A stretch of 64,000 nucleotides of DNA from a virus: positions 17,324 to 81,323 of IMG/VR virus record IMGVR_UViG_3300044617_002446; one strand, written 5' to 3'. Below, piece by piece: positions 15,155-62,819 of this stretch (the stretch's first letter is position 1; every line of letters begins with the position of its first letter). The notes beneath the pieces are model-generated. The model saw only the letters and a program-made list of their open reading frames with translations, was not told the DNA's origin and made no database searches. Both the position numbers and the translations under genes were made by a program.

Positions 15155-15805
15155 ATGGAAGAAAATTTAATTAGATTTAACAAGAGTATCAAAATTCTTT
15201 TTATTGATTTTGAAACGGCTAACCTATGCCTTTCTTCTAAATTTAATCTTCCGTGGCAAATGGCTCTTCTTAAAACAAAAGGTGGAATTCCAGAAGACGA
15301 AGGTGAAAGTATTTTAATAAATTGGGGCGATGAATTTAAATTTTCAAAAGGCGCACTTGAAATGGCGCACTCTTATTGCAAGAACAAAATGCAATCAGAA
15401 GGACTTAAACCAATCGAAGCATTTCAAAAACTTTCAGATGCACTATCAGAAACAGATGCGATAGCCGGGCATAATATTTTAGGCTTCGATATTTATATGA
15501 TAAAAGGAATGTATGAAAAACTAGGTAGAAAATTTCCAAATATTATCCAAAAGAAAAAAATATTCGATACATTTGCTTTAGCCAAAGGTTATTTTAATAA
15601 TATACCAATTCAAAAAAACGAAAATATAATTTCATATCAATATAAAATGATTAATAATATCATCAAAGGTTCAAAAACATCTCTTTCAAAAGTTGCAGAA
15701 AGCTTCAATATCGAGTATGATCAAGGAATGCTACATGATGCTCTTTATGATCTAAATTTAAATTTAAAAGTTTGGAATAAACTAAAATACCAAATTGATT
15801 TTTAA
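15155..15805 (+). CDS. DEDDh 3'-5' exonuclease (Pol III epsilon-like)
   Basis: IDFET (ExoI), GHNILGFD (ExoII), HDALYD (ExoIII). Confidence 0.9.
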   Translation: MEENLIRFNKSIKILFIDFETANLCLSSKFNLPWQMALLKTKGGIPEDEGESILINWGDEFKFSKGALEMAHSYCKNKMQSEGLKPIEAFQKLSDALSETDAIAGHNILGFDIYMIKGMYEKLGRKFPNIIQKKKIFDTFALAKGYFNNIPIQKNENIISYQYKMINNIIKGSKTSLSKVAESFNIEYDQGMLHDALYDLNLNLKVWNKLKYQIDF

Positions 15806-36633: not shown

Positions 36634-39537
36634 TTAATTGGTTGGAAGAGTTAACGGCCTATAAGAAGAATTTATATTTCCACCTACAGATGATGTATAC
36701 AATCTATAAGAAAGCCCTTCGATCATTTTATTTATTAAATTGGCTTCCGGTATGGCTCTATATTTAGTTGATAATGTATAAGATGTTTTCGGTCCATCTT
36801 CTCCTATTGTTATACTTATGTTATCTAAACCTTCTTCAAAAGAATATCTTTTTGGCATTATTCCAAATAAAGTAAAATTTGCACTTTTTTTATTTTGGGT
36901 ATTAGAATATTTTAAATAACTATAAGCCGCTGCGTGCGCCTTTTGAATTTGCTGCATATTTGGAACACATGCACCAGGTTTTAATTCTTTTTCTATTTGA
37001 GAGAGTTCATTAAAATAATAATCATGCTTCATTGCATCAGCTGGAATGTCGCCCGCAATTGGAACTTGATGCTTTGGAATAAAAACCGGCACGTCATAAG
37101 TTTGCCTAAGTCTTACTTTATAAAAGTCTTTATTTTGCCCCCCAGAAGAACCAATATTGCTTGATCCACCGTCTAACAATGATTTTTTTGGTTGAGCCAT
37201 AAGTTTTCTAAATTTCGCTGTTTCTTCTTGCATTTTTTCTGCTAGACTTCTTTTTACATCTTCCTTATCTTTAAAGAAACAACCACCAACTGGCATCATA
37301 AATCCGAAGCCATCAAACGTAACCCATCTACAATTGTCAGAAGTTAACCCAGATGCCCCAAGAACCATTTTTTTCTCGTATGGACTTTTTGTATCTCTAC
37401 TATCCCTCAACAAAGTTTTTCTAACATTTTTCATTTGCTTTGTTTCGTAAAAGTTATTTATTTGAGTTTTTGTTATTGGAAACTCTCTGCCATTCCTCGC
37501 ATTACGGACGCAATATATTCTTATATTTTTATTATTTTTTGCACATGGATATAATCTAACAAGTATATCTGGTCTTCCTTCTGGACCAACAAGCCAAAGA
37601 CCAAAATTATTTGCAAGATAGTCTACTTGAGAAGAGTATTCATTTATTTGACTAGAATGAGGGTACCATTTTGAATCTCTTTCTGCAATTACTAAATTTG
37701 ATTTAACTTTATATTCTTTTTGTATTTGCCCATCTTCTTGTTCTACAGTAAATGTCGAATCTTCTGCATTTGAATCATCATCATCTTTAACTTCTGTAAT
37801 AAGTTTATCTATATAAGACCCTGGTTCATGACCAAAACCGCAAACCGGATGACCAGGAATACCCGCGCCACTAGATAAAAATTCAGCAGATGCATCAGGA
37901 GATTCAATTGATACATTGGGCGCATTTTCTTCTCCAGCTGGAACAATAGGAGAATATTTTCTATACCAAAACCTACCCATAAAATTATTTGCTATTGAAG
38001 ACTCTCTATCGAACTGAGATTGTAAAGTTTCCAAACTATTTTCAACCACCAAAAAATAGTACGAAGAAGTTCCGCCGGTCTTTTTTTGATCTTCTAAAAT
38101 TGCTTTTTTTCTTTCGTCGCCCATTTGATTCAAAATTGAATTCCATCCAGCATCATTAGCTCCCTCATTTTTTGTTGGAGCTATAACATCAATAATACGC
38201 ATATTACCAAGTTCTTTTAATACATTTGGATCTTCTTCATCTTTTTTATTACCCGTAGTGGAAGCACCCAAACCAGGTCCAGCTGTACCTCCACCGGCTA
38301 AACTATTATCTTTTGGAGCAGTTCTTGGTTTTGAAGGATTTTCGCTACAGTCAAATGCCACCTTCTTGCTTACCGCATCTTTTACGCTAAGTATTTTGTA
38401 AGCATTATAAAACCAAAACACTTCTCTTAAATTATTACTATAGTAACTTAAAGCAATCGAAATTTCTTTATCTTCAAGATATTTTTCTTTATCTCCAGAG
38501 GAAGATTTCAAAGAGCCGCCAAGACTACTTTTATTTTTAGATAATCCTGCTCCATCTTTCATATCCCCACCAAATAAATCGGTTATATAAAATGGAGTTA
38601 AAGTAATTATTCTATCGTCTTCACAAGTGTATGATTGCTTTATTCCTTCTCTACCATAATAAGATATTACACCGCGTGATGATGTATCCTCACAAGAAAT
38701 TGTTTCGGAATATTCTGATAAATTTTCATAACTACTAGAATCAATATTAAAATTTGCACCAGATTTTAAATCAACAAAAACCAAAGAATCCTTTTCAAAA
38801 TCCCAATAAAAAGTAAAACCAAAATCAGAACACCAGCTTTGCAAAACACTTCTTAATGATCCTGTATAATCTCTTGGCAATTTTTTTAAGAAATCGCCAG
38901 ACGGTTTATTATTTGCAGTAACCGGCAACTTTGATAAAAGCTCATCAAATGTATATTTAACTTCATAAATACTATTGCCGTCTTCTTCATTAACGCAAGA
39001 TAAGCCATATTTATCAGGTGGAGCAAATGGGCAAGGGTCGCACCAATCAACTTTTATTTGATTTTCATTTAAATCAACAGTAGAATCGAAATCTGTATCG
39101 CATGGATGATATTCTTTCCCAACTATAATTAAATTTTTAGCAAAAGAACCAGGTCTAGATGGCGCCGAATATTTATTGAATCCAGTTCTAATTCTATTAT
39201 ACCCATGTCTTTTATGTAACCCAACATACCACTGATCTAATTTAAAACTATTATCAATATATTTAACCTCTAAAGTAGAAAGCTCAGGACTAACATTTTT
39301 TGTATATGAAACAAGCGCCCCTTTAAAATTTACACCGCCACCAATTCTAACAGAAGACGAATTTCCAACGGGCGAAATAGTAGGAAGACTATATCTCCCG
39401 GTTTCATTCACTATACTTAAAGTCAAAGAGCTGGGTTGTTCTGGTCCACCAACCTCACATGATAAATTGTAAACACGACCACCAAACATTGACGTGCCAA
39501 CAACAGAATCAGAATTTATTTTTATTACCTTTGACAT
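36634..39537 (-). CDS. Probable tail tip/baseplate hub protein
   Basis: 967 aa downstream of the TMP; GSLRSVLQSWCSDFGFTFYWD resembles hub (gp27/Tal-like) segments; C-terminal ISITIGEDGPKTSYTL. Confidence 0.55.
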   Translation of the reverse strand: MSKVIKINSDSVVGTSMFGGRVYNLSCEVGGPEQPSSLTLSIVNETGRYSLPTISPVGNSSSVRIGGGVNFKGALVSYTKNVSPELSTLEVKYIDNSFKLDQWYVGLHKRHGYNRIRTGFNKYSAPSRPGSFAKNLIIVGKEYHPCDTDFDSTVDLNENQIKVDWCDPCPFAPPDKYGLSCVNEEDGNSIYEVKYTFDELLSKLPVTANNKPSGDFLKKLPRDYTGSLRSVLQSWCSDFGFTFYWDFEKDSLVFVDLKSGANFNIDSSSYENLSEYSETISCEDTSSRGVISYYGREGIKQSYTCEDDRIITLTPFYITDLFGGDMKDGAGLSKNKSSLGGSLKSSSGDKEKYLEDKEISIALSYYSNNLREVFWFYNAYKILSVKDAVSKKVAFDCSENPSKPRTAPKDNSLAGGGTAGPGLGASTTGNKKDEEDPNVLKELGNMRIIDVIAPTKNEGANDAGWNSILNQMGDERKKAILEDQKKTGGTSSYYFLVVENSLETLQSQFDRESSIANNFMGRFWYRKYSPIVPAGEENAPNVSIESPDASAEFLSSGAGIPGHPVCGFGHEPGSYIDKLITEVKDDDDSNAEDSTFTVEQEDGQIQKEYKVKSNLVIAERDSKWYPHSSQINEYSSQVDYLANNFGLWLVGPEGRPDILVRLYPCAKNNKNIRIYCVRNARNGREFPITKTQINNFYETKQMKNVRKTLLRDSRDTKSPYEKKMVLGASGLTSDNCRWVTFDGFGFMMPVGGCFFKDKEDVKRSLAEKMQEETAKFRKLMAQPKKSLLDGGSSNIGSSGGQNKDFYKVRLRQTYDVPVFIPKHQVPIAGDIPADAMKHDYYFNELSQIEKELKPGACVPNMQQIQKAHAAAYSYLKYSNTQNKKSANFTLFGIMPKRYSFEEGLDNISITIGEDGPKTSYTLSTKYRAIPEANLINKMIEGLSYRLYTSSVGGNINSSYRPLTLPTN

Positions 39538-44691: not shown

Positions 44692-47600
44692 TTAAGCTTT
44701 TTTCTGCAAACTGCCAAGTTGGTCTGGAGTCATAGAAGATAAGGTTTTATTTGTTGACATAGGTGGTTTGGCTTTTATCGCCCCACCTTTTTCAAGCTCA
44801 CTTCTTAATTCATTTATTTTTTGATTGGCTCTGTCAACACCAGCCTTGATTTCATCAACATATATAGCTTCAACTTTAGTAGCCATTCCATTTTGAACAT
44901 CTTGCGGCGTACTTGTTGGTATCGTTACCGAAACAGGAACACTTATATTATACGTTGCCCCTGCACCAGCTGCCGCAGCTGACATTGACGGCATAGTCGA
45001 TAACGCCTGTTCCGTTGGCGACGGCTGTCTAGGCATAGCGTTTTGTGTAACAGGAGCTTGTGAATTAGGTTGAACAATACCAGAAAAAGCTGTTTTATTT
45101 GTAGCTGTGACCAGATTTGGATTCATGAAATTTGTTGAACCAGGTGTAAAATATCCTTCTTTACCCAAGGCTGCGTTTCTTCCAACAATTGATTGAATTG
45201 ATTCTGGCGTGGCATTTGCTCCAAGTTGAGACCTAATATCTGTTACGTTTGCTTCTGCTCGACCAAATTTTTCTTTATTTTTATTTATCTGTACCTCGGC
45301 GGATCGCTGTTCACCCACGGCCGTTTTATAAGCTTGGTCAGCAGCAACAAAATCTTTAAAAAGCTCCGCTTGCTTTATAAATTCTTTATCTTGTTTAGCT
45401 GTTGAAGCCCCCGTGGAAACATTTGTTCTGGCTTGTTGGATTGCTTCGTCCGAAAAGGCTTTAGAATACATTTCAATAAATGACGCATTATTTTCAGATC
45501 CCAAATCTGCCTTTTGTAAGGCATTATCGCCAGCAAATTTAGAAATAGCCAAATCTCTTAATTTTTTCGACTCTTCAGTTTTACCTTTCTTGGTATCTAA
45601 TTCGGTCTGTGCAAAAGAAAGCTCTTCTTTCGCATCAGATAAAGCATTTTCCATTGAAATTTTCATTTCAGCAGCTCTACCCTTATTAATTGCCGCTTCA
45701 AGCTGTGACCCAATTTTTGAAATATCGAATGATTCTCTTATAGCATCTTCAACTTCATTTAATTTACCAACAACCTCTTTTGTTTGATTATTTATTGTTA
45801 AAACTTGAAGTTTTGTATCACCGGTTACGCCCATATAAGCATCTTTTAACTCTTTAGGAAGACCTTCAAAAGCAGTTTTTGTATAATCACTTGTTACAGC
45901 ATCAACATATTGACCAGAATCTATTGCTCCAAATTTTTGCAATAATTGAAGATTTGCTGCTGTCATCGTACCTGTGTCGCCACCAGCTTGAAGACTTTGT
46001 ATTTGTTCTCTTAATCTATCAAATATTTCCGGACCAAGTGCGCCACCGGCTTGCGCTTCAAATTCATCAACTGATTTTGATAAAAATGAGCTATATCCTT
46101 GAGCTATAGCTTTAAAATTCGTATCACCCATCGACATAATAGGTACGCCTGCAAATCGCGTCAGTTTAGATATACTATCTGTTAATGAACCTAATTTATC
46201 AAACGCTGGAGCCTCGCCGGTTGCTTTATCAACGATTTTTCCAAACTCATTTGTAGTTAAATTTCCAACATTATATCCACCGCCAACAGTTGCAGCCAAA
46301 GAATCTTTGATTTGATTAACCAAAGAATCTTCTTCATTAAGAAGCCCCTTGGTTATTTCTTCAGGTCCACCACCTAAACTTTGTGCCTCAACTATTTTTT
46401 GACGAGCTTTTTCAAACGCAAGCTGCTGAGCTAAAAGAGCCTTTTGTTGTTGTTCATTTCTATTTGAAGTTTTTACGCCCCTATCAATATCATCAAGTTC
46501 TTTAGTAATTTTATTTTGTAAATCCTGTATAGCTGACTCTGTAAATTTGCCACTCGCTTTTAGTTCGCTTATAAATTTTGCGGCATCGGCTCTAGCGCCA
46601 CCAACATCACCTTTTAATAATTTTTCATTAATACCACTGCCCAAAAGGGAAGCGCGCAGCTGTTCTTTTTCTCTTTCAAAATCTGTAACTTTAGTTATTT
46701 TTTCTGCCTCATTGAGACCTGTTAATTGATCTTCTTTTAGTGAAAGACCAGCTATAGAACTGCCTATACTGTCTATAATACCAGTTGTACCTTTTGTTAA
46801 AATATCAGTTCTTTCCTCTTCTCCATTTCTCTGAATTTCAAAAATTCTGTTATTGACGTCCTGATTTCTTTCAGCATTAGGAAGATTTGTCAAACCGTAT
46901 ATATCTTTGGCAAAATCGCCCCTATTTGCTTTTAATTGGTTTTGAAATTTTACACCACTTACAGCATCGTCAATTGACGAAGAAAAATCTTTAAATACTT
47001 TGTCAACTTGAGCTTGAAGAACAGATAAACTAGCCGCAGACTTGTCCGCGCGCTCACGCTCTTTTGCCCTTTTCGCCTCTTCTCTCTTTCTATTTTCTTC
47101 TATAGCCTGTCTTGCTTTATCTAAATTTTCTTGAGCAGAAATAAATTGATCGTTCGCGCTTTGATATTTTTCTATCCATGCCAAAAGTTGATCTGGTCTA
47201 TTTATAGTATTTTTAAGTTCTTCTAAAATTTGCGTTTCATTTCCATCTAAGATGCCGCCACTTTCAGAAAAAGCGCTTTTGAGTGCCGAAATTAAAGTCG
47301 CTTTTTCTGCTTCAAATCCTCCTTGTATATCACCATTTTTAATTTGAGCCGCAGCCAGATCTAATTTTTCTCCAAAATTAAGAGCCGCAATTGAAGCCTC
47401 ATTAAAAGGAGTCGAAGCATCGTCTAGAACCTTTGTAAATGCATATGTTTGATTTACTATAGAGGACATATCACCAGAAGAAACTAAATCTCCAAAAGCG
47501 GCTTCATTTAAATTTCTTTTTAAACGATCACTTGATTCATTTAGAGTATTTTGTCCTGCTAATTGACCCAACGCAGCCCCTGGCGTTATTACAAGTTCAC

Positions 47601-50600
47601 CAAGCGCCAAAAATCCTCTACCTATTTTTTCTAATTCTCCTGTTTTTCCTTTTTCAAAAACGCTTCTTGTTTGAGCCGCAGTTTCCGCGCCAGCTTTTTC
47701 CAAAGTCAGTTGCTCTAATATCTGCGAATAAGTCTCTTGTGCCTTCCCTAATCTTTCGGCTTGCACAAGTTGCTCTTGATATTTAGTTGGAAGAGATGCT
47801 AATACATTAACATAATTTTTTTCAGCCGCCACAACTTGTTCAGCAGACGAATTTGGGTCAGATGATATGGTTTTAAGCTGCTCAGATGCAGTCAAAAACT
47901 GTTGACCAGATTCACTAAATTTTGTAAAACTTTCAGTTGCAGCTGTTACAGCTTTTTCAAATTCTGGCATTTTTGATGTAAGGGCTTTTTCAATTTTTGG
48001 AATTTCCAGTGCCAACCCAACAGCGGCTCCTGCTAAAGCGCCCCAAGGTCCAGCCATCGCACCCATTCCAGCCATTCCAGCAATATTTCCAACAGCCTCA
48101 ATGCCAGCCCTGGTTCCTCTGTTTTCTTCTGGTACAAAAGAAGCAATTTGAGGAGCCGCAATTTGTAAAGCAGATCCAACTGGAAAAGCTAAACTTGTAT
48201 ATCTAGAAATTTTTTGTTGTTTTATTTCTTTTTGCCTAGCCGCTGTCTCTGCTTTATTCGCAGCCAAGCCTTCTTTTTGAGCTTTAATTATATCGTTTAA
48301 ATTTTTTGAAGAAGCAAGCCTAGCTTTAGTTTCTTTTTCTTGAGCCGAAACAAGCCTTATTTGTTGCTTGTCAAGCAAATCCTGAGCTAAAACCACATCA
48401 TAACGATTGCCAGTAGATCGTGCGTCTAATAAATTTTTCTCAGCAGCGGCAACACCCGCCTCTGCTTTTTTTACGTTTTTGCTTCCAAATGTTTGATTTT
48501 TTATCGATTCTAAATTTTTGTCTCTCTTTTTTTCTAATACCCCTATATTTTTTTCCTGCTTTTCAACGCTAGAGGAAAAATCCGTCAAAGACTCTTCACT
48601 TTCTTTAATTGATTTTCCGGCATCCTTAAATTGCTGATTGATAAAAACCAAGCTAAATGCAAGCCCCTGCAAACCAGCCAAAACTGCCGCGATGGTATTT
48701 TCGCTACCACTCGAAGAACTTTCTGCAAAGTTAGGAATAAAACCACCAGACAATAAACCTGCACTTTTCTGACCAGTTACAGAGTCTTTCAATGCTTTGT
48801 TTAAACCTCCGTGATCTGCCATTGCCGATCCAAATGTAGGCTGGCTTTTATTTCTAACGTGTGGAAATGGTTTGCTATGATAAGTTGCTTTTTCTCCAGA
48901 CATGGCTGACTCAAGAGCCATCACTTGTGAAAGATCTGCAAAATTAGGAATAAAGCCGGAACCTAGTCTCTTATTCACAAGTCTAGCATTTAAATAACCT
49001 TTTTTACCTAAAAGACTTAAATCATCATCTATAATTTTCGCACCACGTTTATTTGCTTCTATTATTTTATCTTTTGGTCTTACTCCAAAATTAATTTTAT
49101 TAACAGGAAGACCAAGCCTAGAAGCTGTTTGTGATATTGCGTTTTCAAAAATTTGAGGACGAGCTGTTAATATATCAAATTTTTTCTTTCCGGCTTTTAA
49201 TTTTTTACCAATCGGAAGAAGATCTTTTTCTTTCAAAGAATTTAATTTATTTATATATTCGTCTGGCTTTCCTGAGAATCTTGGTATTATTGTTCCATCC
49301 CAGTCGTAAACGTTTCTTCTTAATTGATCCGCAAAGTTTGGTAAAAACCTTGATGACGCGCCGCTCATCGCAGAAGAAAAACGGTTTTCTACTAAAGCTC
49401 TAAATTTAGAACCCTCTTTTGATCTTCTAGATATATTCGATAATCTTTTTCTGTCTATAATTCCAGCGTTTTCAAGATTTCTTACAAAAGTTTTTTCATC
49501 AGCCGAAAGAAGATCTAAATTACCCTTATTCCTAAATACTTTTTCTTGTATTCTTGTTATAATTTCATCAACAGCTTTTCCGCCCGAATAAGTAGAGCTT
49601 GGATTTCTTCCTTCAAAATCCAATTGAACAGGATTCAAACCAAGACCGGAATAAAGGTTTTTTTCATTTACTCCCTTAAATAGAAAAGAAGAAATAATAC
49701 TTTTAACTCCAGCGTATTTTTTGGGATCTGATATAAATTTTCCTATTGAAGGATTTGATACAGATTTTCTAAATGTAGATCTTGAATAAACATTATGAAA
49801 TAACTCATGAGCCAATGTGTTTTCGGTCGCGCCAGTTCCAAGCTCTATGTTCGATTTAGAGCCATTTCCATAATTAGTTCTTCCCCTTACTCCAATTGGC
49901 AAATTGCTCTTTTTTATATCTAAAAAGTTAGGAATAAAACCGGCAGAACTCTGTGTTTTTAATTGAACACCTAAGCCCCTGTAAACACCCGCCTGAACAT
50001 CTCCAAAGTAATCAGTAAACTTATCAGGATCGTTTTTTAATATTTTAATTTGAGCGTCAATAAAAGATTTAAATTGTGCAGTAGTCATCTGCTCTTCGTC
50101 CATGCCCTTATGACCCCATACTTCAAAAATAGCTTTTTTAGCCATTTGCGCGCGCCTCATTTGAGGATAAAGGGTTTCTGCGGAAACAGGTTGGCCGGCT
50201 TTGAGTTTTTCCAAAAATCTACTTGTTTGTGGAAGAATCTGACCGCTCATCATTTTGCCGCGATTGATTTCCATGGCTTTTCTATATAATTCTCCAGCTA
50301 TACCTTGACCGCGATATTCTCTAGCAACACTAATATCATCAACGCTTACTTTGCCGGGTTTATCTTCGCTGTACTCAAAAGATCCAACTTTTTTACCATC
50401 CATCTTAGCAACAAGAGTAGAAAAACCAAATTCATCTTTTTTCCCTTGAGAAAATGTTAATCCTTTAGTTGCGAAATTAGGTAAAAATCCACCTGATAAT
50501 ATTTTTCTTGTTTGATATTCGCCAGCTTTTTTAAATATTCTTGAAACAGAAGCGCCTGGGTATTCTGAAGAAAAACCTCGAACACCTTTTGTAAATGAAG

Positions 50601-53600
50601 AAATCCCGCCTGTTCCAGATGTAAGTTGTGCTCTTCCAGGTGTTAATAAATCACCAGTAGCTGCGCGTTTCTCGCGCAAAGATTTTATTGTGTTTCTCGA
50701 TCCAACTAAAATATCTAAAGCGCCTCTGTCACCAGATTTTGAAAATATTTTCTTTAAATTATCTGCGACAATTTGATCTTTTGGCATTGATAAAACTGCG
50801 CGGTCTAGTATATAACTATCGAAAGCCGCCAAATCTTGAAATGATTTTACAATTTTTCCACCAGCCTTTGACGCCATTGTGGTTTTTCCAGAACCAGATG
50901 GACCAAGAATTGTTCTAACGGGCTTTGGCGTTTTAGCTAGAAAATCCAGTACTGCCTTATACTCATTACCGCGAATAACATCGCCCGTAACTATACCAGA
51001 TGCAAAATTAGGTATAAAACCCCCAAATAAATTATTATTTCTTACCCATTTTTCAAGAGAGCTTTGTTTATTAGGAAGTGAATTTGAACCTTTTGCTTCA
51101 TATGGACCAGGGGCGTTACCAAAAAAATCTCTAAGTTGGGCATTTGGCGCGGGGAAATCAAAAGCCTGATTTTTGCTTTGTGCCTCTTGATTGAACGCTT
51201 TTCTAATTGCTGATTCAAAAACCGTTCCAACAGCCGCCATGACAGTACTTTTATCAGAAAATTGTCCTATATCTGAAAAAGATGCGCCCGGATTAAAAAT
51301 GCCCGCAAAACGATTAGCTTCACCTAAAAGAAAATTCGAAATCTTTTTCTGCAACGATCCAGCATTTGCTTGTTTAGCCACATCGCTAGAACTTAGCCCA
51401 GAAGTTTTAAATTTACCAAAATAGCGAGTTGGCTGACCGGTTTTTTTATCTTTTTTCAAAAAATCTACTTCACCAGTATCTTGAATTCCAATATTTTCTG
51501 GATGAATCATTGTATACGCCAAGCTTCCCAAGTCTTTAACTGCCACTCTACCAGATTTAAGTGTCGCTTCCTTTGAACTTCTAGATACAAAAGTTGACTG
51601 CGCTCCCTGCTGAGCCATTAAATTTTTAAATCCAGCTTGCATTTTTGATCCTGCAAAATTTGGAATAAAACCTGAATACAATGGAATAGGAATACTATTA
51701 GCTGAATACTTCTCGTATTTTCCAGCGTTATCCATTTCTATCATTTTTCTTGCAATCGCAAATAATTTTGGGTGAGAATATTCTCTAGATCTTATTATTT
51801 CAGCGCCTCTTTTTTCTATTAATTTTTTATCATATGCTTCGACAGCCGAGCTAGGTAAAAGCAGCCTATTACCCTTTGGGTTTCCTAAACCAAAATTAGA
51901 ATCCTTATATGCAGCTGCACCAGATAATTTCGCCTCAGCTACAGCATATTTACCTTTTTTTATATCAGGACCAACTTTAGATTCAACTAAAGATAAATTT
52001 TTTTCACCTTGAGAAACAGCCTCAAAAACTCTACCTGCTAAAAAAGATGGTTGTGTAGAAGAAGAAATCAAGCTTTTTTGATAGCTTTTTTTTACCTGTG
52101 AAGAAGAGTTGTATTTTTGTTCTTTAGCAGCCAGCCCTTTTATCAATGCAAAATTAGGAATAAATCCACTAGCTGCAATTTCTGTATTTTCACCAAATCC
52201 ATTTGGAGGTCTTACAATCGTAGCCTTTTTACCATCTGCATTTCTAAAATTAACAATATCTTCTTTATTGTTAACCCACGACTGAAAAGACTTTCCAGCT
52301 CCATCGTGAATTCTTGTTTTCTTGGCTTTTCCGGCTTTATATCCGTGTTGGCGCGCCCCAGCATTTTCCATTGCTTGCCCTATTGCCTGCTCTGAAGCAA
52401 AATTAGGAATAAAACCCGCAGATTTAACTGTTGGAACACCAGTTTTACCAACAGAAACACCAGAGCGACCAAGATTTCCAGCAATAACTTTACTTAACCT
52501 TTCTTGCTCTTTCATTACATTTGACTGAGCAGTAAGATAATTCAATAATTGTTTTTCAGCTTGAACGGTGGATAATTTTCCACTTAAAATTTGATTTGTA
52601 AATTGAGTATTCTTTTGAAGAATAGAAAGAACACTTTGCTCCAATGCCGCCTGCTGTTTTGTTGCTTCATTTCTACCAAGAAGCTCCCTTGCAGATCCTG
52701 CCGCAAATTGCGTAAGTTTAACAAAAAGTTTAGTAAGAACAGCAACAGCTAAAACAGTTCCAGGTCCACCAATAAAATTAGAAATACCTTTAAAAAATCC
52801 TTCTATAAATTTTCCGCCTTGACTTTCAGTATCTATATTATTAAATGCTTCAAGGACGTTATTAAAAGAAGAAAGAAAGTTTTTAGCATTGGGTTCAAAA
52901 ACTATAGAACCTATTTTATCAGCAGCTTGCTGTAAGTTTGCAACTGCTTGAGAGGATAACGCGGCAACTGTTTGATTTAATAGCTCATTCCTTCTGATTG
53001 CTTGATCTGTAGAAGATAAAGATGTTTGTAATGCTCTATCATATATACTGTATTCTTTACCGAGATCACCTAAAGCAGCTTTTAAAATGTTAATTTGAAA
53101 AACGCCGCCAACTTGTTCAGCTACATAAGATTTTTGACTTGCGCTTAATGTATCATATGTGCTTGCTAATTGTTGAAGCAGCGAAACAGCACTTTGACCT
53201 TCGCCGGTATCAACCCCAAGACTTTCAAGAAGACTTTGAACTCTTCCGCGTTGTAATCTTGTGAAAATAGTTTTTAAAGAGTTACCAATAACGGCACCGC
53301 CTCTAGCAGTTGTTTGTTGTGCTGTTGTAACAATTGAAATTAATTCATCTAAAGAAACGCCTGCATCTTGAGCAGTTGAACCAACACGGCTTATAGCATT
53401 AGCCAAATCAGCAGAACTAACTGCAAAAGCGGCGTCAACATTCGCCAATTTATTTACAACCTCTACAGCATCAAGCGCAGAACCAGAAAATGAGTTTAAT
53501 GTAGCTGTAAGAGTTTCAACACTTTTTGTAGCGTCTAAACCACTGAGTCTTGTTAAAATAAGGGCAGCATTTGTTCTTTTTAAAGTTTCTTCAACGCCAA

Positions 53601-54027
53601 GACCTTGTCTAGCAAGCTCTGTTGCAGCATCTGCCACCGATGAAAAACTCTGAGCTGTATTTCTAGCTATACTAAATAAAGAGGATCCAAATTTTTCTAA
53701 ATTTGATGAAGAAAGATTTAATAAAACATTTACATCCTGCAGCTTCTTTTCTACTTCTATAGTTGTTGATATTAAAGATGTTATAGCTCTTTCAACAGCA
53801 AAAATAGCACCAGCTGAAGCACCGAAAGCAATAACGCGCGCATTAGAAGCCTCTAAGCTTTTATTAAATTCAGAAACCTGACCGGTTATTCTTCCAAGGG
53901 CTTGCGAGCTTTTTTTTGTATTTATTTGCGAAAGCTCTATTGTTCTTAAAGACTTCTCGATATCGCGCTCCATGCCGCGTGTATTAGCGCGAATATCAAT
54001 AGTAGCTTGTGTTAAACCATTTGCCAT
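44692..54027 (-). CDS. Tail tape-measure protein carrying an internal array of enzymatic domains
   Basis: N-terminal TP901-type TMP domain (ELARQG, LANVDAAFAVSSADLA, ARGGAVIGNSLKTIFTR); long coiled coils; AGPWGALAGAAVG hydrophobic segment; follows tail tube and chaperone genes. Confidence 0.9.
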   Translation of the reverse strand: MANGLTQATIDIRANTRGMERDIEKSLRTIELSQINTKKSSQALGRITGQVSEFNKSLEASNARVIAFGASAGAIFAVERAITSLISTTIEVEKKLQDVNVLLNLSSSNLEKFGSSLFSIARNTAQSFSSVADAATELARQGLGVEETLKRTNAALILTRLSGLDATKSVETLTATLNSFSGSALDAVEVVNKLANVDAAFAVSSADLANAISRVGSTAQDAGVSLDELISIVTTAQQTTARGGAVIGNSLKTIFTRLQRGRVQSLLESLGVDTGEGQSAVSLLQQLASTYDTLSASQKSYVAEQVGGVFQINILKAALGDLGKEYSIYDRALQTSLSSTDQAIRRNELLNQTVAALSSQAVANLQQAADKIGSIVFEPNAKNFLSSFNNVLEAFNNIDTESQGGKFIEGFFKGISNFIGGPGTVLAVAVLTKLFVKLTQFAAGSARELLGRNEATKQQAALEQSVLSILQKNTQFTNQILSGKLSTVQAEKQLLNYLTAQSNVMKEQERLSKVIAGNLGRSGVSVGKTGVPTVKSAGFIPNFASEQAIGQAMENAGARQHGYKAGKAKKTRIHDGAGKSFQSWVNNKEDIVNFRNADGKKATIVRPPNGFGENTEIAASGFIPNFALIKGLAAKEQKYNSSSQVKKSYQKSLISSSTQPSFLAGRVFEAVSQGEKNLSLVESKVGPDIKKGKYAVAEAKLSGAAAYKDSNFGLGNPKGNRLLLPSSAVEAYDKKLIEKRGAEIIRSREYSHPKLFAIARKMIEMDNAGKYEKYSANSIPIPLYSGFIPNFAGSKMQAGFKNLMAQQGAQSTFVSRSSKEATLKSGRVAVKDLGSLAYTMIHPENIGIQDTGEVDFLKKDKKTGQPTRYFGKFKTSGLSSSDVAKQANAGSLQKKISNFLLGEANRFAGIFNPGASFSDIGQFSDKSTVMAAVGTVFESAIRKAFNQEAQSKNQAFDFPAPNAQLRDFFGNAPGPYEAKGSNSLPNKQSSLEKWVRNNNLFGGFIPNFASGIVTGDVIRGNEYKAVLDFLAKTPKPVRTILGPSGSGKTTMASKAGGKIVKSFQDLAAFDSYILDRAVLSMPKDQIVADNLKKIFSKSGDRGALDILVGSRNTIKSLREKRAATGDLLTPGRAQLTSGTGGISSFTKGVRGFSSEYPGASVSRIFKKAGEYQTRKILSGGFLPNFATKGLTFSQGKKDEFGFSTLVAKMDGKKVGSFEYSEDKPGKVSVDDISVAREYRGQGIAGELYRKAMEINRGKMMSGQILPQTSRFLEKLKAGQPVSAETLYPQMRRAQMAKKAIFEVWGHKGMDEEQMTTAQFKSFIDAQIKILKNDPDKFTDYFGDVQAGVYRGLGVQLKTQSSAGFIPNFLDIKKSNLPIGVRGRTNYGNGSKSNIELGTGATENTLAHELFHNVYSRSTFRKSVSNPSIGKFISDPKKYAGVKSIISSFLFKGVNEKNLYSGLGLNPVQLDFEGRNPSSTYSGGKAVDEIITRIQEKVFRNKGNLDLLSADEKTFVRNLENAGIIDRKRLSNISRRSKEGSKFRALVENRFSSAMSGASSRFLPNFADQLRRNVYDWDGTIIPRFSGKPDEYINKLNSLKEKDLLPIGKKLKAGKKKFDILTARPQIFENAISQTASRLGLPVNKINFGVRPKDKIIEANKRGAKIIDDDLSLLGKKGYLNARLVNKRLGSGFIPNFADLSQVMALESAMSGEKATYHSKPFPHVRNKSQPTFGSAMADHGGLNKALKDSVTGQKSAGLLSGGFIPNFAESSSSGSENTIAAVLAGLQGLAFSLVFINQQFKDAGKSIKESEESLTDFSSSVEKQEKNIGVLEKKRDKNLESIKNQTFGSKNVKKAEAGVAAAEKNLLDARSTGNRYDVVLAQDLLDKQQIRLVSAQEKETKARLASSKNLNDIIKAQKEGLAANKAETAARQKEIKQQKISRYTSLAFPVGSALQIAAPQIASFVPEENRGTRAGIEAVGNIAGMAGMGAMAGPWGALAGAAVGLALEIPKIEKALTSKMPEFEKAVTAATESFTKFSESGQQFLTASEQLKTISSDPNSSAEQVVAAEKNYVNVLASLPTKYQEQLVQAERLGKAQETYSQILEQLTLEKAGAETAAQTRSVFEKGKTGELEKIGRGFLALGELVITPGAALGQLAGQNTLNESSDRLKRNLNEAAFGDLVSSGDMSSIVNQTYAFTKVLDDASTPFNEASIAALNFGEKLDLAAAQIKNGDIQGGFEAEKATLISALKSAFSESGGILDGNETQILEELKNTINRPDQLLAWIEKYQSANDQFISAQENLDKARQAIEENRKREEAKRAKERERADKSAASLSVLQAQVDKVFKDFSSSIDDAVSGVKFQNQLKANRGDFAKDIYGLTNLPNAERNQDVNNRIFEIQRNGEEERTDILTKGTTGIIDSIGSSIAGLSLKEDQLTGLNEAEKITKVTDFEREKEQLRASLLGSGINEKLLKGDVGGARADAAKFISELKASGKFTESAIQDLQNKITKELDDIDRGVKTSNRNEQQQKALLAQQLAFEKARQKIVEAQSLGGGPEEITKGLLNEEDSLVNQIKDSLAATVGGGYNVGNLTTNEFGKIVDKATGEAPAFDKLGSLTDSISKLTRFAGVPIMSMGDTNFKAIAQGYSSFLSKSVDEFEAQAGGALGPEIFDRLREQIQSLQAGGDTGTMTAANLQLLQKFGAIDSGQYVDAVTSDYTKTAFEGLPKELKDAYMGVTGDTKLQVLTINNQTKEVVGKLNEVEDAIRESFDISKIGSQLEAAINKGRAAEMKISMENALSDAKEELSFAQTELDTKKGKTEESKKLRDLAISKFAGDNALQKADLGSENNASFIEMYSKAFSDEAIQQARTNVSTGASTAKQDKEFIKQAELFKDFVAADQAYKTAVGEQRSAEVQINKNKEKFGRAEANVTDIRSQLGANATPESIQSIVGRNAALGKEGYFTPGSTNFMNPNLVTATNKTAFSGIVQPNSQAPVTQNAMPRQPSPTEQALSTMPSMSAAAAGAGATYNISVPVSVTIPTSTPQDVQNGMATKVEAIYVDEIKAGVDRANQKINELRSELEKGGAIKAKPPMSTNKTLSSMTPDQLGSLQKKA
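48724..52416 (-). repeat. Nine dispersed 21-nt/7-aa repeats GF(I/L)PNFA within the TMP
   Basis: Copies at 52396-52416, 52147-52167, 51652-51672, 51001-51021, 50470-50490, 49921-49941, 49330-49350, 48937-48957, 48724-48744, all in frame. Confidence 0.95.
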
Positions 54028-54082: not shown

Positions 54083-55141
54083 TTAATTTTTCCCTAATTT
54101 AGTAGCCGAATCGGTCTTTTTAATGGCGCCATATATATTTAATTCTCCACCTGATTCTTTTGCCGCTGAAAGTAAATCAACAGAACCAACATCAGATTCA
54201 TTAACACCAATATCCTTATAATCGGAAGCCGTTGCTCCAACTATCGAAGACATTCTACCCGTTCTTTCTCCGCGTTTATTTTTTTGATTTGGCGATCTAT
54301 CTAAAAGCTTTTTAGTTCTAGAGGATGACGATGAATCTTTTTCACACCATTCAACAAGCATTTCAGGATTATTTAATACGTCTTCTGGTATTCTTTCGGT
54401 AGTATTATTTATCAGTTTTCTATAGGACGAACCAAATGAAAAAACATCAATTTGATTACACGTCAATTCAATAACGGGTTTGCCATAAAAATTATAAATT
54501 GGGAAGTCCGCACCAGTCAAAATAACAAGATTTTGAAAAAAAGCAGAGGCGGCAACAATTTTTAAATTTTCTATCTTAGTTAAACTTAAGCAATTAAATA
54601 ATTTGTCCCAAAGTTGGGAATATTCAGACTCGCTTAATTCCTCAAAAAAAAGTCCATCACTCGAAACCTGTTTTTGCATAGCCGCATCTTTAAAAAGACT
54701 ATATATTAAATAATATCTATTATAATATTTTTCAGCATATTCTTCGGCAGTTACAGGTATAATGCTTTTTCTTTCATTTAATATTAAATTTAACTTATCA
54801 AATTCAGAATCAATTGTTTTTTGAACCTCATCTTTTTGTGATTGTAAAAGGAGTTTACTTTTACTTTTATTAAGACTTTCAATAAAGCTTTTTGATGTTC
54901 TAATTTCGTCTTCCTTGCTTTTCGACCACCAGTTTTTCTCTATAAAGAAGTCAAGGTATTCTTTTTCTGTTTTAACACCGCTTTTTTGCGCTATAAAAAT
55001 ACCCTCATTGTATTTTTCCTTTAAAGCTTGCTTGTCTGAATGCCTTGGGTGTTTTAAATAAAAAACTTCATCTAAAAAATTTATTTCATCGTAACCTCTA
55101 GATACAATAGTATATATTTTTTGTATCTGGTCGTACTCCAT
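54083..55141 (-). CDS. Probable tail assembly chaperone
   Basis: Helical 352-aa protein directly upstream of the TMP (synteny-based call). Confidence 0.5.
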   Translation of the reverse strand: MEYDQIQKIYTIVSRGYDEINFLDEVFYLKHPRHSDKQALKEKYNEGIFIAQKSGVKTEKEYLDFFIEKNWWSKSKEDEIRTSKSFIESLNKSKSKLLLQSQKDEVQKTIDSEFDKLNLILNERKSIIPVTAEEYAEKYYNRYYLIYSLFKDAAMQKQVSSDGLFFEELSESEYSQLWDKLFNCLSLTKIENLKIVAASAFFQNLVILTGADFPIYNFYGKPVIELTCNQIDVFSFGSSYRKLINNTTERIPEDVLNNPEMLVEWCEKDSSSSSRTKKLLDRSPNQKNKRGERTGRMSSIVGATASDYKDIGVNESDVGSVDLLSAAKESGGELNIYGAIKKTDSATKLGKN

Positions 55142-55158
55142 AAATACGACTGAAACAA

Positions 55159-55956
55159 TTACTGTTTCGAAATTACATCAGAAACATTTTGATCAGTTGT
55201 TTTGTTTGATTCATCCAGGGGCGACTCTTGCTTTTCTTCGTTTTCAACTTGATCAGCAAGATCTTCTTCAACTTCGCGTTTTAAAAATTCCGCATCCAAT
55301 GATTCAAATTCTTTAAATGTGTTAGCGCTTCCAAGATACCAAATAGTAACAAGGTAGTTTATTCTAGAAAGAATAGAAGACAAAAATTCATCGTTTTCTA
55401 AAATTGAATCATAACTATCTAGCTTTTCATCAATTGTTCCGTCGCCAAGAATTTTTTTAAACTCTCCATTTTCAAGTTGTTCTGCACCTAAATTTGCTGA
55501 CCACCAAACAATGGTTTTATTTCTAGCTTTTGCTTCTGCGGTATATTCAAAAGCATTTATTTGAGCAAGCTCCATTTCTTGCATTTGTTTTCTAACCAAA
55601 GCTATATCTGTTTGTAGTTCCAACAGCTCATCAGATTCTTCTTTTGAACGATCTGCTGCTTTTTTGACTGAAATCTTATCAACCTTTTCGCGGGCTTCAA
55701 CCAATTTTACATAAAGATCAGAATATTCCTTTTTGTCAACATCTGATATTATACCACCCTTATCTTTAAAAAGTTTATCCCAAAGTATTTTTGGCAAAAT
55801 TCCAGCAGCGATAAATTGTGAAAGCCTAGAGGCATAATAAAGTTCGCCGTCTTCTTTCATTTTTCTTGTCGGATTTAAAATACAAAAAGTTCTTTTTTTG
55901 CCATCCTTTGAAGAAGCCTCAAATTTATATAGATATTTATTTTTTTCGTTTTTCAT
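55159..55956 (-). CDS. Probable tail assembly chaperone
   Basis: Between tail tube and TMP; coiled-coil and acidic tail (synteny-based call). Confidence 0.5.
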   Translation of the reverse strand: MKNEKNKYLYKFEASSKDGKKRTFCILNPTRKMKEDGELYYASRLSQFIAAGILPKILWDKLFKDKGGIISDVDKKEYSDLYVKLVEAREKVDKISVKKAADRSKEESDELLELQTDIALVRKQMQEMELAQINAFEYTAEAKARNKTIVWWSANLGAEQLENGEFKKILGDGTIDEKLDSYDSILENDEFLSSILSRINYLVTIWYLGSANTFKEFESLDAEFLKREVEEDLADQVENEEKQESPLDESNKTTDQNVSDVISKQ

Positions 55957-56640: not shown

Positions 56641-57756
56641 TTAAGGAGCCGGTGTTAAAACAGCTGGATCATAGCTACCAGAGACTCTAACGCCCTTGGG
56701 GTCTTCTGGTCCACCGATACTAACTTCGTATTCCAAAGTAACAGAAGCGTTGTCGCCAATTGATGTAGAAACATTCTCTGAAAGAAGTTTCGCACCATTT
56801 AACTGTGCTATCATTGCGGGTGCACCTACACCAGAACAGTCATTCCTTCTAAGTGTTATTGAAAGATTATACTCGCTTGTATCGCAAAGCAAATCAGAAA
56901 GATTAAAATTAGCCAAATCGCCCATTTGAGCTTCAACAGAAAGAGAAGCGGTAACGGGGAAGTCAATTTCGCGGCTGAACGGGAATCTGCTACCGAGTTT
57001 TTCGATAGGAGTTCTTCCTAAATCAGTTGAAAGGGTAAAGCTTTGAATCTTGATATCATTTGCAGTAAACCCTTTAACTTGATCATCTGTAAGAGATAAA
57101 GTTATATCGCCGGGTCTTAATACTGTGATTTGACCAGCGTAACTGTTTGTTTGAGCTTGAGGAAGTCTAAATGGCACGCCTGCAACTTTTGTTCCTAGAG
57201 TTGGGTTGATTGCTGGAACATCTTGTGTTCCATTGAGCGTAGAATAAACCGCAAAGTTTAGTGCCTCAAAATCAGCAGAAGCAGTAGGAATATCGCCTAC
57301 AGAAGCTTCAAGTGAATAAGATGTTAAATAACCATTTCCGACTCCGAATGCGCCCGTAGGAACATCGGTATAGTTAGAAGCATCACTACCTTCTTTAGCA
57401 ACAAGAAGAAAATAATTTTTTTCATCTGTTTCTTTTCTTAAAATACCAGAAAGCAATGCGCTTGTTGATTGACCGCTACCGCAAACACTCAAGCCGATCA
57501 TTTTTTCATTTAATCCATCTGTTGGATACCATGAAGTGCTCATGTTTACTGTAGGAGCTTCAACTTCAATACGATCAATAGCAGCAAGATTTCCGTATTG
57601 GTTTACATCAGTAAAGTTTCTTGAAAAGTCAGAATCCCAACTTTGAACTCTGGAAAGCTGAAGTACACTTTTATCGCTTGTATGACTACCAGATTGAGCG
57701 GGGTTTTGTCCAGCATAAAGAGCTAAACTTTGATAAATGATACGATTTCTTGCCAT
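56641..57756 (-). CDS. Major tail tube protein
   Basis: 371 aa beta-rich, low-AT codon style typical of highly expressed genes; upstream of chaperones/TMP; MARNRIIYQS...LSRVQS, QSFTLS..L.R.P..KLG. Confidence 0.7.
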   Translation of the reverse strand: MARNRIIYQSLALYAGQNPAQSGSHTSDKSVLQLSRVQSWDSDFSRNFTDVNQYGNLAAIDRIEVEAPTVNMSTSWYPTDGLNEKMIGLSVCGSGQSTSALLSGILRKETDEKNYFLLVAKEGSDASNYTDVPTGAFGVGNGYLTSYSLEASVGDIPTASADFEALNFAVYSTLNGTQDVPAINPTLGTKVAGVPFRLPQAQTNSYAGQITVLRPGDITLSLTDDQVKGFTANDIKIQSFTLSTDLGRTPIEKLGSRFPFSREIDFPVTASLSVEAQMGDLANFNLSDLLCDTSEYNLSITLRRNDCSGVGAPAMIAQLNGAKLLSENVSTSIGDNASVTLEYEVSIGGPEDPKGVRVSGSYDPAVLTPAP

Positions 57757-60940: not shown

Positions 60941-62287
60941 TTAACCTGTTACTGTCCATCCTTTATTTGTTGCTATTGTAGGATCGTCTCCAGTCACTCC
61001 ATAGTTATCGGTTACATTAATTGTTTTACCTGATCCATTTGTTGCTAAGCTTTGATAAATATAGTTTAAACTAGCTGAAGAAAAATTACATCCGTTAAAT
61101 CCTAATATTCCTCCGCTTCCAACATTCATTCCAGAAGTTGAAAAAGTTATCATTGATAATGAAGTACATCCCGCCGCAAAAAATTGTAAATTACTATTTA
61201 TTGCTGTTAAGCTTGGCATTTTTAAGCTTTTTATACTATTTGAACCGAATAAAAAATTATTATTTGTTGTAGTAACAATTGGTTGCCAATTTGAAATATC
61301 TAAGTATTGTAAGCTATCACAAATTTCAAACATAGTAGACATAGTTGTAACTTTTCTTACATCCCAACTCGAAAGAGATATATTTTTAAGACTTCTACAT
61401 TCTCTAAACATAAAACTCAATGTGGTTGCATTAGAAACATTCCATTTATTTAAATTTAAAATTTCTTTATCGCAAAATAATGTTCCACAAAAATCAAAAA
61501 TATTATTCATATTTGTACAATTAGTTGAAACATTCCAATCCTCTAACCCTTCTATATTTTTTAAAGAAGTACAGTATGCAAACATGCTAGCAAAGTTTGT
61601 ACCACTACTTACATTCCAATTTCTTGTATCCAAAGATTGTAATCGATGACATTCAAAAAACATAGAATTAAAATTGTTTATTTGACTAGTATTCCATTCA
61701 TGTTCATTTAAAGACTGTAAAACTCTACACCCTCTAAAAACAGAATTAAGAGTGGTAATATTTCCCCAAGATTTAATATATACTCTTTCTAAAAAATGTA
61801 AAGTTTTATTTGCGCCTCCTATACTAAAAGTTGTAGCAGATGGACAATTTACATTTATATCCATCCATCCTTCCCCATAAGCAATATTCGCCGTAATTGC
61901 AGAATGTCTTACATTTAAAGTAAATTGTGTAAGATTTTGACCGCTTTGAGGTGTTATTGTGATAATAGCTTGTCTATAACCATACGAAGTAAGAGTATTA
62001 GAATTAATCGAATTCCAATTATAGTTGTAAGATGCCGTTGTGTTTGAAGAATAATTTTGAGGCGATGATCCATCCCCCCAATCAACTGTATATGCTCCAG
62101 AACATCTTAATGCATAAAAATTAGTATCATTATCAAAAACTGCAACAAGCGCCCTTACACCTTGAGGTTCTGGAACAGCGGGCAATGTCAACCAGTCAGA
62201 AGGTCTCGTCCAATGATCAGAAGATCTTGGGCTATCTTTATATAATTGCTTCGTTCCTAAATAAGCTCTGATTGGTGTTCTTGACAT
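60941..62287 (-). CDS. BspA/DUF285-type LRR virion surface protein with N-terminal PKD-like domain
   Basis: YTVDWGDGS; ~25-aa repeats WNVS..T....MF..C.SL..L; ATG at 62287. Confidence 0.8.
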   Translation of the reverse strand: MSRTPIRAYLGTKQLYKDSPRSSDHWTRPSDWLTLPAVPEPQGVRALVAVFDNDTNFYALRCSGAYTVDWGDGSSPQNYSSNTTASYNYNWNSINSNTLTSYGYRQAIITITPQSGQNLTQFTLNVRHSAITANIAYGEGWMDINVNCPSATTFSIGGANKTLHFLERVYIKSWGNITTLNSVFRGCRVLQSLNEHEWNTSQINNFNSMFFECHRLQSLDTRNWNVSSGTNFASMFAYCTSLKNIEGLEDWNVSTNCTNMNNIFDFCGTLFCDKEILNLNKWNVSNATTLSFMFRECRSLKNISLSSWDVRKVTTMSTMFEICDSLQYLDISNWQPIVTTTNNNFLFGSNSIKSLKMPSLTAINSNLQFFAAGCTSLSMITFSTSGMNVGSGGILGFNGCNFSSASLNYIYQSLATNGSGKTINVTDNYGVTGDDPTIATNKGWTVTG

Positions 62288-62297
62288 AAAATAAATA

Positions 62298-62819
62298 TTA
62301 AGAAATAAAATAAAGTGTGTTTGCATTTATTCCCGTTGATGCAACCAACGCATCATAGCCCGATTGAGGCAAAATAACTATAGAATAAATTGGCGTAGAA
62401 TTTGAAATATCACTTACAATTACTCTTTGACCGCTTGATTGAATTGTTCCAGAAAACGAAACAGAACCAGTATAATTTTGATTTATAAATCCACTTGGAT
62501 TACTATTAGCATAAAATTGTCCAGTTTGAGATGCGGAAATAAAATTAGATGTATCTACGCCAGTAATATATCCACTCGGATTACTCGATAAATAATAACT
62601 AGACAAGTCTAAACCTCCAGTTATATCGCTTAAGAGCGCCACCTGACTATTTCCACTAACTATAGGTCTATTAGAAAAATATGCATCACCGTCATCAATT
62701 CTAAAATTTTTACCAGATATATGAAGCCCCGAAACCGGATTCTCTATTCCAATACCAACCGTATCATTAAAAAATCCGCTGCGCCCGTAAAGTAATTTTG
62801 ATCTAAATTTGTTTGCCAT
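62298..62819 (-). CDS. Short tail-fibre-like protein
   Basis: VGIGIENP..LHISG, two SNPSG(Y/F)I repeats, C-terminal Q..YDAL......NTLYFI. Confidence 0.6.
   Translation of the reverse strand: MANKFRSKLLYGRSGFFNDTVGIGIENPVSGLHISGKNFRIDDGDAYFSNRPIVSGNSQVALLSDITGGLDLSSYYLSSNPSGYITGVDTSNFISASQTGQFYANSNPSGFINQNYTGSVSFSGTIQSSGQRVIVSDISNSTPIYSIVILPQSGYDALVASTGINANTLYFIS

Follow-up and report, generated by a model that had tools for sequence, protein, structure and literature searches.

The stretch of DNA analysed here, referred to as the window, comprises 64,000 nucleotides (nt) and represents the final 64 kb of an 81,323-base virus record of IMG/VR (IMGVR_UViG_3300044617_002446, positions 17,324 to 81,323), which is classed as linear and has a CheckV completeness of 54%. 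The subject of this analysis is an open reading frame (ORF) on the minus strand at 44692..54027, whose translation comprises 3111 amino acids (aa); all features of this gene described below lie on the same strand. Residues 122-308 (53104..53664) match the PhageMin_Tail domain PF10145 at 7.3e-26 with 91.7 bits (cut-off 33.2), and eight tape-measure families of PHROG match the protein over its first ~450 residues, the best of them at 4.9e-47. On account of these matches, the ORF encodes a tape measure protein (TMP) of the TP901 family, and its naming as a TMP in the preliminary description, which had been made from the sequence of the window, was thus borne out.

The N-proximal third of the TMP, residues 538-1768 (48724..52416), consists of an array of eight modules or cassettes and nine copies of a short junction peptide, which were located by a regular-expression scan. 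Counted from the first F, the pattern F[IL]PNF starts at residues 539, 622, 787, 1004, 1181, 1364, 1561, 1692 and 1763; of the nine copies, seven have the form GF(I/L)PNFA, and the other two are RFLPNFA and GFIPNFL. Junction peptide 1 (GFIPNFA, residues 538-544) is found at 52396..52416, and copies 2 to 5 follow at 52147..52167, 51652..51672, 51001..51021 and 50470..50490, the last of which reads GFLPNFA. Copy 6 at 49921..49941 is the GFIPNFL variant, copy 7 at 49330..49350 is the RFLPNFA variant, and copies 8 and 9 are located at 48937..48957 and 48724..48744. The scan exactly matched the number of copies, the two variants and the span that had been reported earlier, and the inter-motif lengths of 76, 158, 210, 170, 176, 190, 124 and 64 aa were also as described. 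From the composition of the TMP, 0.002 copies of the motif would be expected, compared to the nine seen, and at least one match was obtained in 36 of 20000 shuffled versions of the protein. Elsewhere in the six reading frames, [FY][ILV]PNF occurs once in the window, at 15781, where it is flanked by stops and attributable to chance, and no exact-DNA form of the motif is present elsewhere in the 81-kb record.

The array is richer in basic residues than the remaining TMP (K 10.3%, E 4.5%) and is flanked by two hydrophobic segments, which were detected with the Kyte-Doolittle scale. One of them comprises residues 418-443 (52699..52776) upstream of the array, and the other, residues 1778-1796 (48640..48696), is located ten residues past the last junction peptide and reaches the highest score (2.08). 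The same scan revealed further hydrophobic segments of the TMP at residues 1989-2009 and 2139-2157.

Relatives of the array and cassette exchange

A search with residues 530-1775 of the TMP matched 305 proteins, and the family counts given below rest on the 120 relatives that were listed. These are metagenomic proteins of 1.8 to 4.8 thousand amino acids (kaa), nearly all of which contain PF10145, and the motif is present in all 120 of them with 3 to 12 copies per protein. Cutting the 120 proteins at their motifs yielded 672 segments, which form 88 families (36 singletons, families being labelled F0, F1 and so on) and 103 distinct architectures; relatives with kept flanks and motif but a differing number and kind of modules, which the preliminary description had predicted, were thereby found. 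The architecture of the window TMP is F0-F9-F3-F5-F2-F7-F12-F4. The entry module (F0) and the exit module (F4 or F1) stay nearly constant: 61 of the listed relatives begin their array with F0, and 98 end it with F1 or F4. F3 is found in 56 of the 120 proteins, F2, a GNAT family, in 58 and the HExxH family F7 in 22. The order of the modules is partly fixed, with F3 ahead of F2 in 37 of 37 cases and F2 ahead of F7 in 18 of 18, and F5 and F9 are mobile, F5 and F2 occurring in either order (7 vs 7). The two families of exit modules can be aligned and share invariant E9, N29, G44 and A48, with a 7-residue insertion in F1, and their split arose only from the BLAST clustering; F4 and F1 therefore constitute one exit-module superfamily. 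Module families were also compared to each other with hhalign for pairs as far as F9/F13, and several of the top pairs turned out to be merged segments with a missed motif. In the three closest proteins, the length outside the array is 1880, 1898 and 1906 aa, compared to array lengths of 1231, 1654 and 1674 aa, and array and non-array lengths are uncorrelated among 112 proteins (r = 0.08). A steady non-array part combined with a varying array fits the idea that the array is not part of the ruler.

A profile of the motif-F0-motif unit matched 554 cluster representatives at E <=0.001, and 188 at <=1e-10, among 1.84 billion proteins, and the proteins with F0 were giants that almost always carried it at residue 520-560. 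Short proteins retrieved in this search were considered as stand-alone homologues and dismissed as contig-edge fragments; likewise, seven shorter matches to modules were judged to be TMP fragments on the basis of length, contig size and matches to PF10145. In eight relatives of 3.4-4.8 kaa (P0191, P0200, P0201, P0217, P0221, P0223, P0233 and P0243), a second motif-F0-motif unit lies 3,000-4,500 residues into the protein, far beyond the main array, so that a pair of junction peptides can evidently enclose the entry module by itself. In IMG/VR, a search with peptide words retrieved no relatives, and it was a degenerate DNA pattern of the motif that found them at 118 loci or more, with at least two motifs in one long frame in 95 of 118. 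Three related, array-bearing phage genomes (G001-G003) have sizes of 148-178 kb and are rated 100% complete, and one of them has direct terminal repeats. Among 50,697 phage records, which represent cultured phages, no match to the array was obtained by blastn and tblastn; the match of residues 1-640 to cultured phages is confined to the PF10145 region, with less than 37% identity.

The junction peptide is the exact place at which cassettes are gained, lost, replaced and sometimes reordered among related phages. In BLASTP comparisons of the window TMP with seven relatives, the alignment blocks end on or near motif positions, as seen for blocks 1-1185 and 1348-1697 in one relative (P0002) and 1-626 and 783-1368 in another (P0003). 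A natural variant was found on an 867-nt contig from a lake metagenome of another study (run X4), which is ~94-96% identical and joins position 48943 to position 49928. This joint connects junction peptides 8 and 6 in frame with a loss of 984 nt (328 codons), thereby producing an array without modules 6 and 7; the shorter of its two sides measures 244 nt, and 11 nt fit both sides. Four other joints (48749>52399, 48750>52397, 51673>53573 and 51681>52147) were set aside, as their sides measure 20-33 nt and are possibly the motif itself. In addition, 24 of 40 loose ends of metagenome contigs were listed, 12 of which lie inside the array. Eleven of these 12 are no more than 3 nt away from a motif edge, and motif edges at this tolerance span ~3% of the array. 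They were found at 52396 in junction peptide 1, at 52147, 52148, 52150 and 52168 around copy 2, at 51022 and 50491 next to copies 4 and 5, at 48957 in copy 8, and at 48722 and twice at 48726 around copy 9; the exception is located at 49172.

The consensus of the junction peptide comprises nine residues, (A/S)(S/G)G(F/Y)(I/V)PNFA. A logo of 794 sites in the relatives reads [AS][SGK]G[FY][IV]PNF[A], with G conserved in 99%, P and N in 100% and F in 98% of the sites, and the residues flanking the motif carry no information.

Module functions and predicted structure

Most of the modules lie outside current family libraries, since the Pfam annotation of the 120 relatives consists of PF10145 and two GNAT families only. 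Module 1 (F0, 76 aa, 52168..52395), the conserved entry module, and module 8 (F4, 64 aa, 48745..48936), the exit module that is alignable with F1, had no match in family, profile or fold searches, and the ESM Atlas was unhelpful for module 1. Module 5 (F2, 176 aa, 49942..50469) is the sole module to pass a family model; it matches PF00583 at 7.3e-8 with 33.1 bits (cut-off 20.7), and its acetyl-CoA motif (R/Q-x-x-G-x-G/A) contains a string, RGQGIA, that is conserved in relatives, which identifies it by sequence as a GNAT acetyltransferase. For five other modules, plausible assignments can be made from invariant residues of catalytic type. Module 2 (F9, 158 aa, 51673..52146) contains a PD-(D/E)xK-like motif, E...PD...ExK, whose residues E42, D61, E71 and K73 are invariant in 10 sequences, and module 3 (F3, 210 aa, 51022..51651), the most widespread middle module, has an E...D...ExK-like motif with E146, D165 and K187 invariant in 23 sequences; both may be nucleases. 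Searches with PDB profiles gave nothing meaningful for modules 2, 3 and 8. Module 4 (F5, 170 aa, 50491..51000) is a putative P-loop nucleoside triphosphatase (NTPase), in which the Walker A sequence GPxGxGK[TS] and two arginines, R109 and R112, are invariant in 14 sequences. Its PDB profile matches are limited to the P-loop (best 4.9e-6), and no kinase family match was found in Pfam and profile searches.

Module 6 (F7, 190 aa, 49351..49920) is characterized by an invariant HExxH motif (H38, E39 and H42 in nine sequences), which suggests a peptidase. Two of the nine F7 members match DUF5700, a putative Zn peptidase family, at a sub-threshold E of 0.06-0.08, and no match was obtained in the PDB profile search. 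A weak lead from the ESM Atlas, in which LPD23 accounted for 18% of one cluster, was discarded, being unsupported by Pfam scans of the nine members, and no LPD or MPTase family of Pfam matched the whole TMP, the modules or the nine F7 members. Module 7 (F12, 124 aa, 48958..49329) has HAD-like motifs (DxDGT, T, K, DD): the four HAD motifs (DxDxT; S/T; K/R; DD) are present in order, and in 12 sequences D9, D11, T13, T55, K88 and D101 are invariant and D102 is conserved in at least 90%. There was no Pfam match to module 7 at E-values up to 10, nor a relevant match in the PDB profile search. In the preliminary description, catalytic motifs had been called in six modules. The strings are real and conserved in relatives, but only the GNAT domain reaches the threshold of a curated family.

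Structure models were calculated with AlphaFold2 for module 3 (23 sequences) and for residues 530-800 (29 alignment rows), which cover modules 1 and 2. The model of module 3 has a mean predicted local distance difference test score (pLDDT) of 85.7 and a predicted template modelling score of 0.75, and the mean pLDDT of the second model is 71.6. In the latter, F0 reaches block pLDDT values of ~78-87 and is predicted to comprise one helix and four strands, and F9 has values of 84-91 in most 10-residue blocks. The three copies of the motif in this model (model residues 9-15, 92-98 and 257-263) are coil with pLDDT <50. As they lie in low-confidence coil between folded domains, the motif appears to be an exposed linear motif that is located outside the domains, in predicted flexible linkers of about 15-18 residues. 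The earlier suggestion that the segments are independent domains was supported for F0, F9 and F3, which are folded in the models and form separate domains with coil motifs in between.

Comparisons of the models to known folds were undecisive. For module 3, the best VIA-align hit had a Z score of 3.0, and restriction-type nucleases accounted for 5 of 44 rows at Z 2.2-2.5. For module 2, taken from the model of residues 530-800, the best hit was a NIF3-type protein (Z 3.7), and ~14 of 50 rows were recognised by eye as restriction-type nucleases, all of them at Z <=3.4, which VIA-align rates as noise level. Foldseek returned weak ERCC4/XPF rows for residues 530-800 at E 0.4-1, and neither this model nor that of module 3 (searched against PDB and BFVD) had a match at E 0.001 or better. 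The absence of a fold match does not show a new fold.

Delivery of the array and role of the junction peptide

Tape measure proteins occupy the tail and exit it when the phage infects a cell, as is also noted in PMC10770324, and the array may accordingly be carried in the virion. The TMP is a chassis with an insertion zone, in which cassettes bordered by the exposed junction peptide of nine residues are swapped in frame; in the window, the zone holds eight of them, which fold independently of one another. On balance, we lean towards a model in which these cassettes would be delivered by the virion, and the peptide would be read by one common factor, thereby probably freeing the modules or separating them from the ruler. 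In this model, the host probably receives, by way of the tail, an exchangeable set of preformed enzymes, which would arrive just ahead of the DNA and would be composed of a GNAT, two nuclease-like modules, a P-loop NTPase, an HExxH module and a HAD-like module. The anatomy of the motif is compatible with recognition by a protease as well as with docking. Tentatively, a processing site is the most likely reading of the junction peptide, and uncut modules that act in a tethered state at the entry pore are nearly as likely. It is conceivable, if doubtful, that the Asn-bearing peptide is cleaved on assembly or ejection, either by another factor or in a self-catalysed reaction, as is the case for certain viral coat proteins, which undergo self-cleavage at Asn. 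The array would then resemble a loaded magazine, which would release up to a dozen enzymes into the host ahead of all phage gene expression, and the peptide would double as a universal socket through which phages exchange such enzymes in frame.

Several TMPs contain embedded cell-wall enzymes, such as the TMP of mycobacteriophage TM4 with its Rpf-like motif and Pb2 of phage T5 with a peptidase. The protein described here resembles them in having catalytic domains inside a TMP, which are used at entry in TM4 and T5; however, these two carry one or two fixed lytic domains, whereas the array consists of exchangeable enzymes of cytoplasmic type with a motif at their borders. A further likeness, which is one of working and not of membership, exists to polymorphic toxins, in which an invariant short peptide marks the border of swapped cassettes: CdiA and Rhs proteins have the junction motifs VENN and DPxGL, respectively, and the Rhs motif is also a self-cleavage site. 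In contrast to the up to 12 internal cassettes in a phage structural protein, CdiA and Rhs proteins possess one C-terminal toxin with an immunity gene and depend on bacterial secretion. Viral polyproteins also contain repeated short sites between independently folding units, and cleavage, which is predicted here, is known for them.

A resemblance in content exists to the polyvalent proteins of phages and conjugative elements, single polypeptides with many effector-type domains, which are thought to enter the host together with the DNA (PMC5512222). Their injection with phage DNA provides a precedent for delivery (PMC5512222, PMC7824862). Unrelated effector domains, such as GNAT, restriction-endonuclease fold, zincin and kinase domains, occur in these proteins in variable combinations (PMC5512222), and the TMP likewise combines eight unrelated modules in one polypeptide, with combinations that vary among relatives. 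In contrast, the main text of PMC5512222 describes neither a TMP chassis nor a junction peptide and contains the words 'tape' and 'linker' 0 times each. The processing of polyvalent proteins is ascribed there to an embedded zincin peptidase, whereas the HExxH module of the array occurs in 22 of 120 relatives. According to PMC10770324, gp96 of Thermus phage P23-45 is a TMP with an N-terminal virion RNA polymerase, which acts at the very start of infection; as in the array, an enzyme is built into a giant TMP near its N-terminus, and the packing of the enzyme in the tail is unexplained in that case as well. In the account given there, however, gp96 has one large fixed enzyme with neither swappable cassettes nor a junction peptide, and no sequence relation between the two proteins was found. 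In the contractile injection systems of the PVC type, a payload is likewise located in a tail-like tube, as would be the case here, but the payloads described in PMC11495950 are separate proteins, which have N-terminal signals and are loaded by an ATPase, whereas the modules are part of the tape measure itself. A full-text literature search, which covered articles without their supplements, retrieved no description of the motif strings or of a cargo, cassette or effector array in a TMP. The design is read here as that of a polyvalent effector protein, probably delivered by the virion, for which a TMP provides the chassis and one universal peptide the junctions.

A number of observations weigh against the proposed delivery and processing. 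No protease for the motif was identified, and the HExxH module is found in only 22 of the 120 listed relatives. A protease of the Prp type, which is known from L27 and phage 80alpha to cut between F and A, was considered and rejected, as PF04327 is absent from three of three complete related genomes. There are no natural 'pre-cut' genes, since a stop within 20 residues after the motif occurs at 0 of 368 sites in the IMG/VR loci. Three copies of folded domains of 18-23 kDa are estimated to fit hardly into the ~4-nm lumen of a tail tube. The partly fixed order of the modules means that the array is shuffled less freely than the word 'magazine' implies, and five of the six enzyme assignments are made at the level of motifs, with undecisive profile and fold searches.

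Three other explanations of the motif have to be weighed against the model of delivered cassettes. The motif could be kept only as a recombination joint at the DNA level, which provides in-frame microhomology and has no role as a peptide. Insertions, deletions and swaps of cassettes do fall at the motif, and 11 nt are shared at the natural joint. However, the mean pairwise nucleotide identity of the nine copies (0.82) is no higher than the value predicted by codon usage (0.80 +/- 0.017, with 14% of simulations reaching 0.82), and it is therefore the peptide and not the DNA that is conserved. Synonymous codons vary freely among the nine copies, whose 30-nt flanks have nucleotide identities of 0.33 and 0.29, and amino-acid identity is ~100% at five motif positions at the 794 sites in diverged proteins, which makes a pure DNA joint very improbable. 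Selection acts on the junction peptide at the amino-acid level and not on the DNA, and the DNA microhomology at the motif is a by-product that aids exchange. It is possible, at about the same low level of confidence as for cleavage at Asn, that the junction peptide is an element of assembly, i.e., a docking or register site for a tail assembly chaperone, for the lumen of the tube or for other TMP chains; foreign domains would be threaded into the tail, and the modules, still attached to the TMP, would exert their activity at the entry pore. With its nine residues, invariant core, free flanks and position in disordered linkers, the motif resembles short linear binding motifs, and two conserved genes without family assignment are found in chaperone position upstream of the TMP gene at 37 and 32 of 118 loci. 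The location of the array between hydrophobic segments makes a tethered loop on one side of a membrane conceivable, neither a protease nor pre-cut genes were found, and the polymerase of P23-45 is proposed to act while it is fused to the TMP pore (PMC10770324). In contrast, no docking partner was identified, and the motif is present in no other reading frame of the window, nor is its exact-DNA form found anywhere else in the 81-kb record; it is therefore not a general virion-packaging tag. Moreover, an invariant Asn and small residues in front of an aromatic residue are also typical of cleavage sites.

The array could also be a polyprotein of late enzymes, which is cut at the motif before or during assembly, so that it is no virion cargo and only the ruler part enters the tail. 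Such a cut would keep the length of the tail constant, in line with a non-array length that is constant in close relatives while the array varies by ~440 aa, and would account for modules that, by the estimate given above, fit the tube lumen poorly. However, late-made nucleases and acetyltransferases have no obvious use, the precedents of the polyvalent proteins and of P23-45, as far as they are described in the sources cited above, concern delivery at entry, and the N-terminal PF10145 domain, which is located upstream of the array, would be severed from the ruler. Late processing is thus considered unlikely.

If the modules are delivered in the virion, as favoured here, the array would represent a widespread and so far undescribed route by which phages bring ready-made enzymes into their hosts, as indicated by the 554 cluster representatives matched by the profile of the entry module. 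The functions of the modules could lie in anti-defence or host takeover, and dozens of module families without known relatives are candidates for new counter-defence activities. Owing to the peptide 'socket', enzymes of the set can be swapped without loss of the reading frame. The array as a whole could also be a model from nature for equipping engineered phage tails or tail-like particles with protein cargo, and it raises a physical question, namely how folded domains are stored in the tail tube and pass through it.

Neighbouring genes, habitat and host

Several genes in the vicinity of the TMP gene, all of which are encoded on the minus strand, were found to be conserved by tblastn against the 118 IMG/VR loci. 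The gene directly upstream of the TMP gene (54083..55141, 352 aa), which occupies the position of a tail assembly chaperone, is the one present at 37 loci; its product has no match in Pfam, PHROG or PDB. The second gene upstream (55159..55956, 265 aa), present at 32 loci, has no family match in Pfam or PHROG. Both proteins are large for tail assembly chaperones. In a computational binding test, the 352-aa protein together with the motif-F0-motif unit gave a score of 0.00, which counts neither for nor against binding. A conserved gene for a protein of 371 aa (56641..57756), found at 35 of the 118 loci, is a candidate for the tail tube protein, with a weak match to Phage_tube_2 at an E-value of 0.042, which is below the cut-off. 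Upstream of the tail genes, a protein of 461 aa (60941-62326) contains DUF285 repeats (PF03382, 1.1e-26) and has weak matches to leucine-rich repeats.

Downstream of the TMP gene, there are three very large ORFs on the minus strand (25010-29959, 31015-36627 and 36634-39537; 1649, 1870 and 967 aa), which presumably encode tail-tip or fibre proteins. No tblastn homologues of the 1870- and 967-aa proteins were found in the 118 IMG/VR loci. The region from position 1 to 23000 of the window is a block of plus-strand genes, and the GC skew flips at ~22-24 kb, where the gene strand changes.

The DNA pattern of the motif was also found at 120 loci in genome contigs, only two of which have at least two motifs in one frame, and the others are single matches of the kind that chance would produce. 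One of the two-motif loci is a 3.96-kb contig of a metagenome-assembled genome (MAG) labelled Proteobacteria, and one relative of the array was assigned to the bin of a Nanopelagicales MAG; the data do not allow a host to be named. The habitat is lake water and freshwater, as sequencing runs of three studies, one of which may be the source of the DNA itself, hold at least half of the sampled sequence words.

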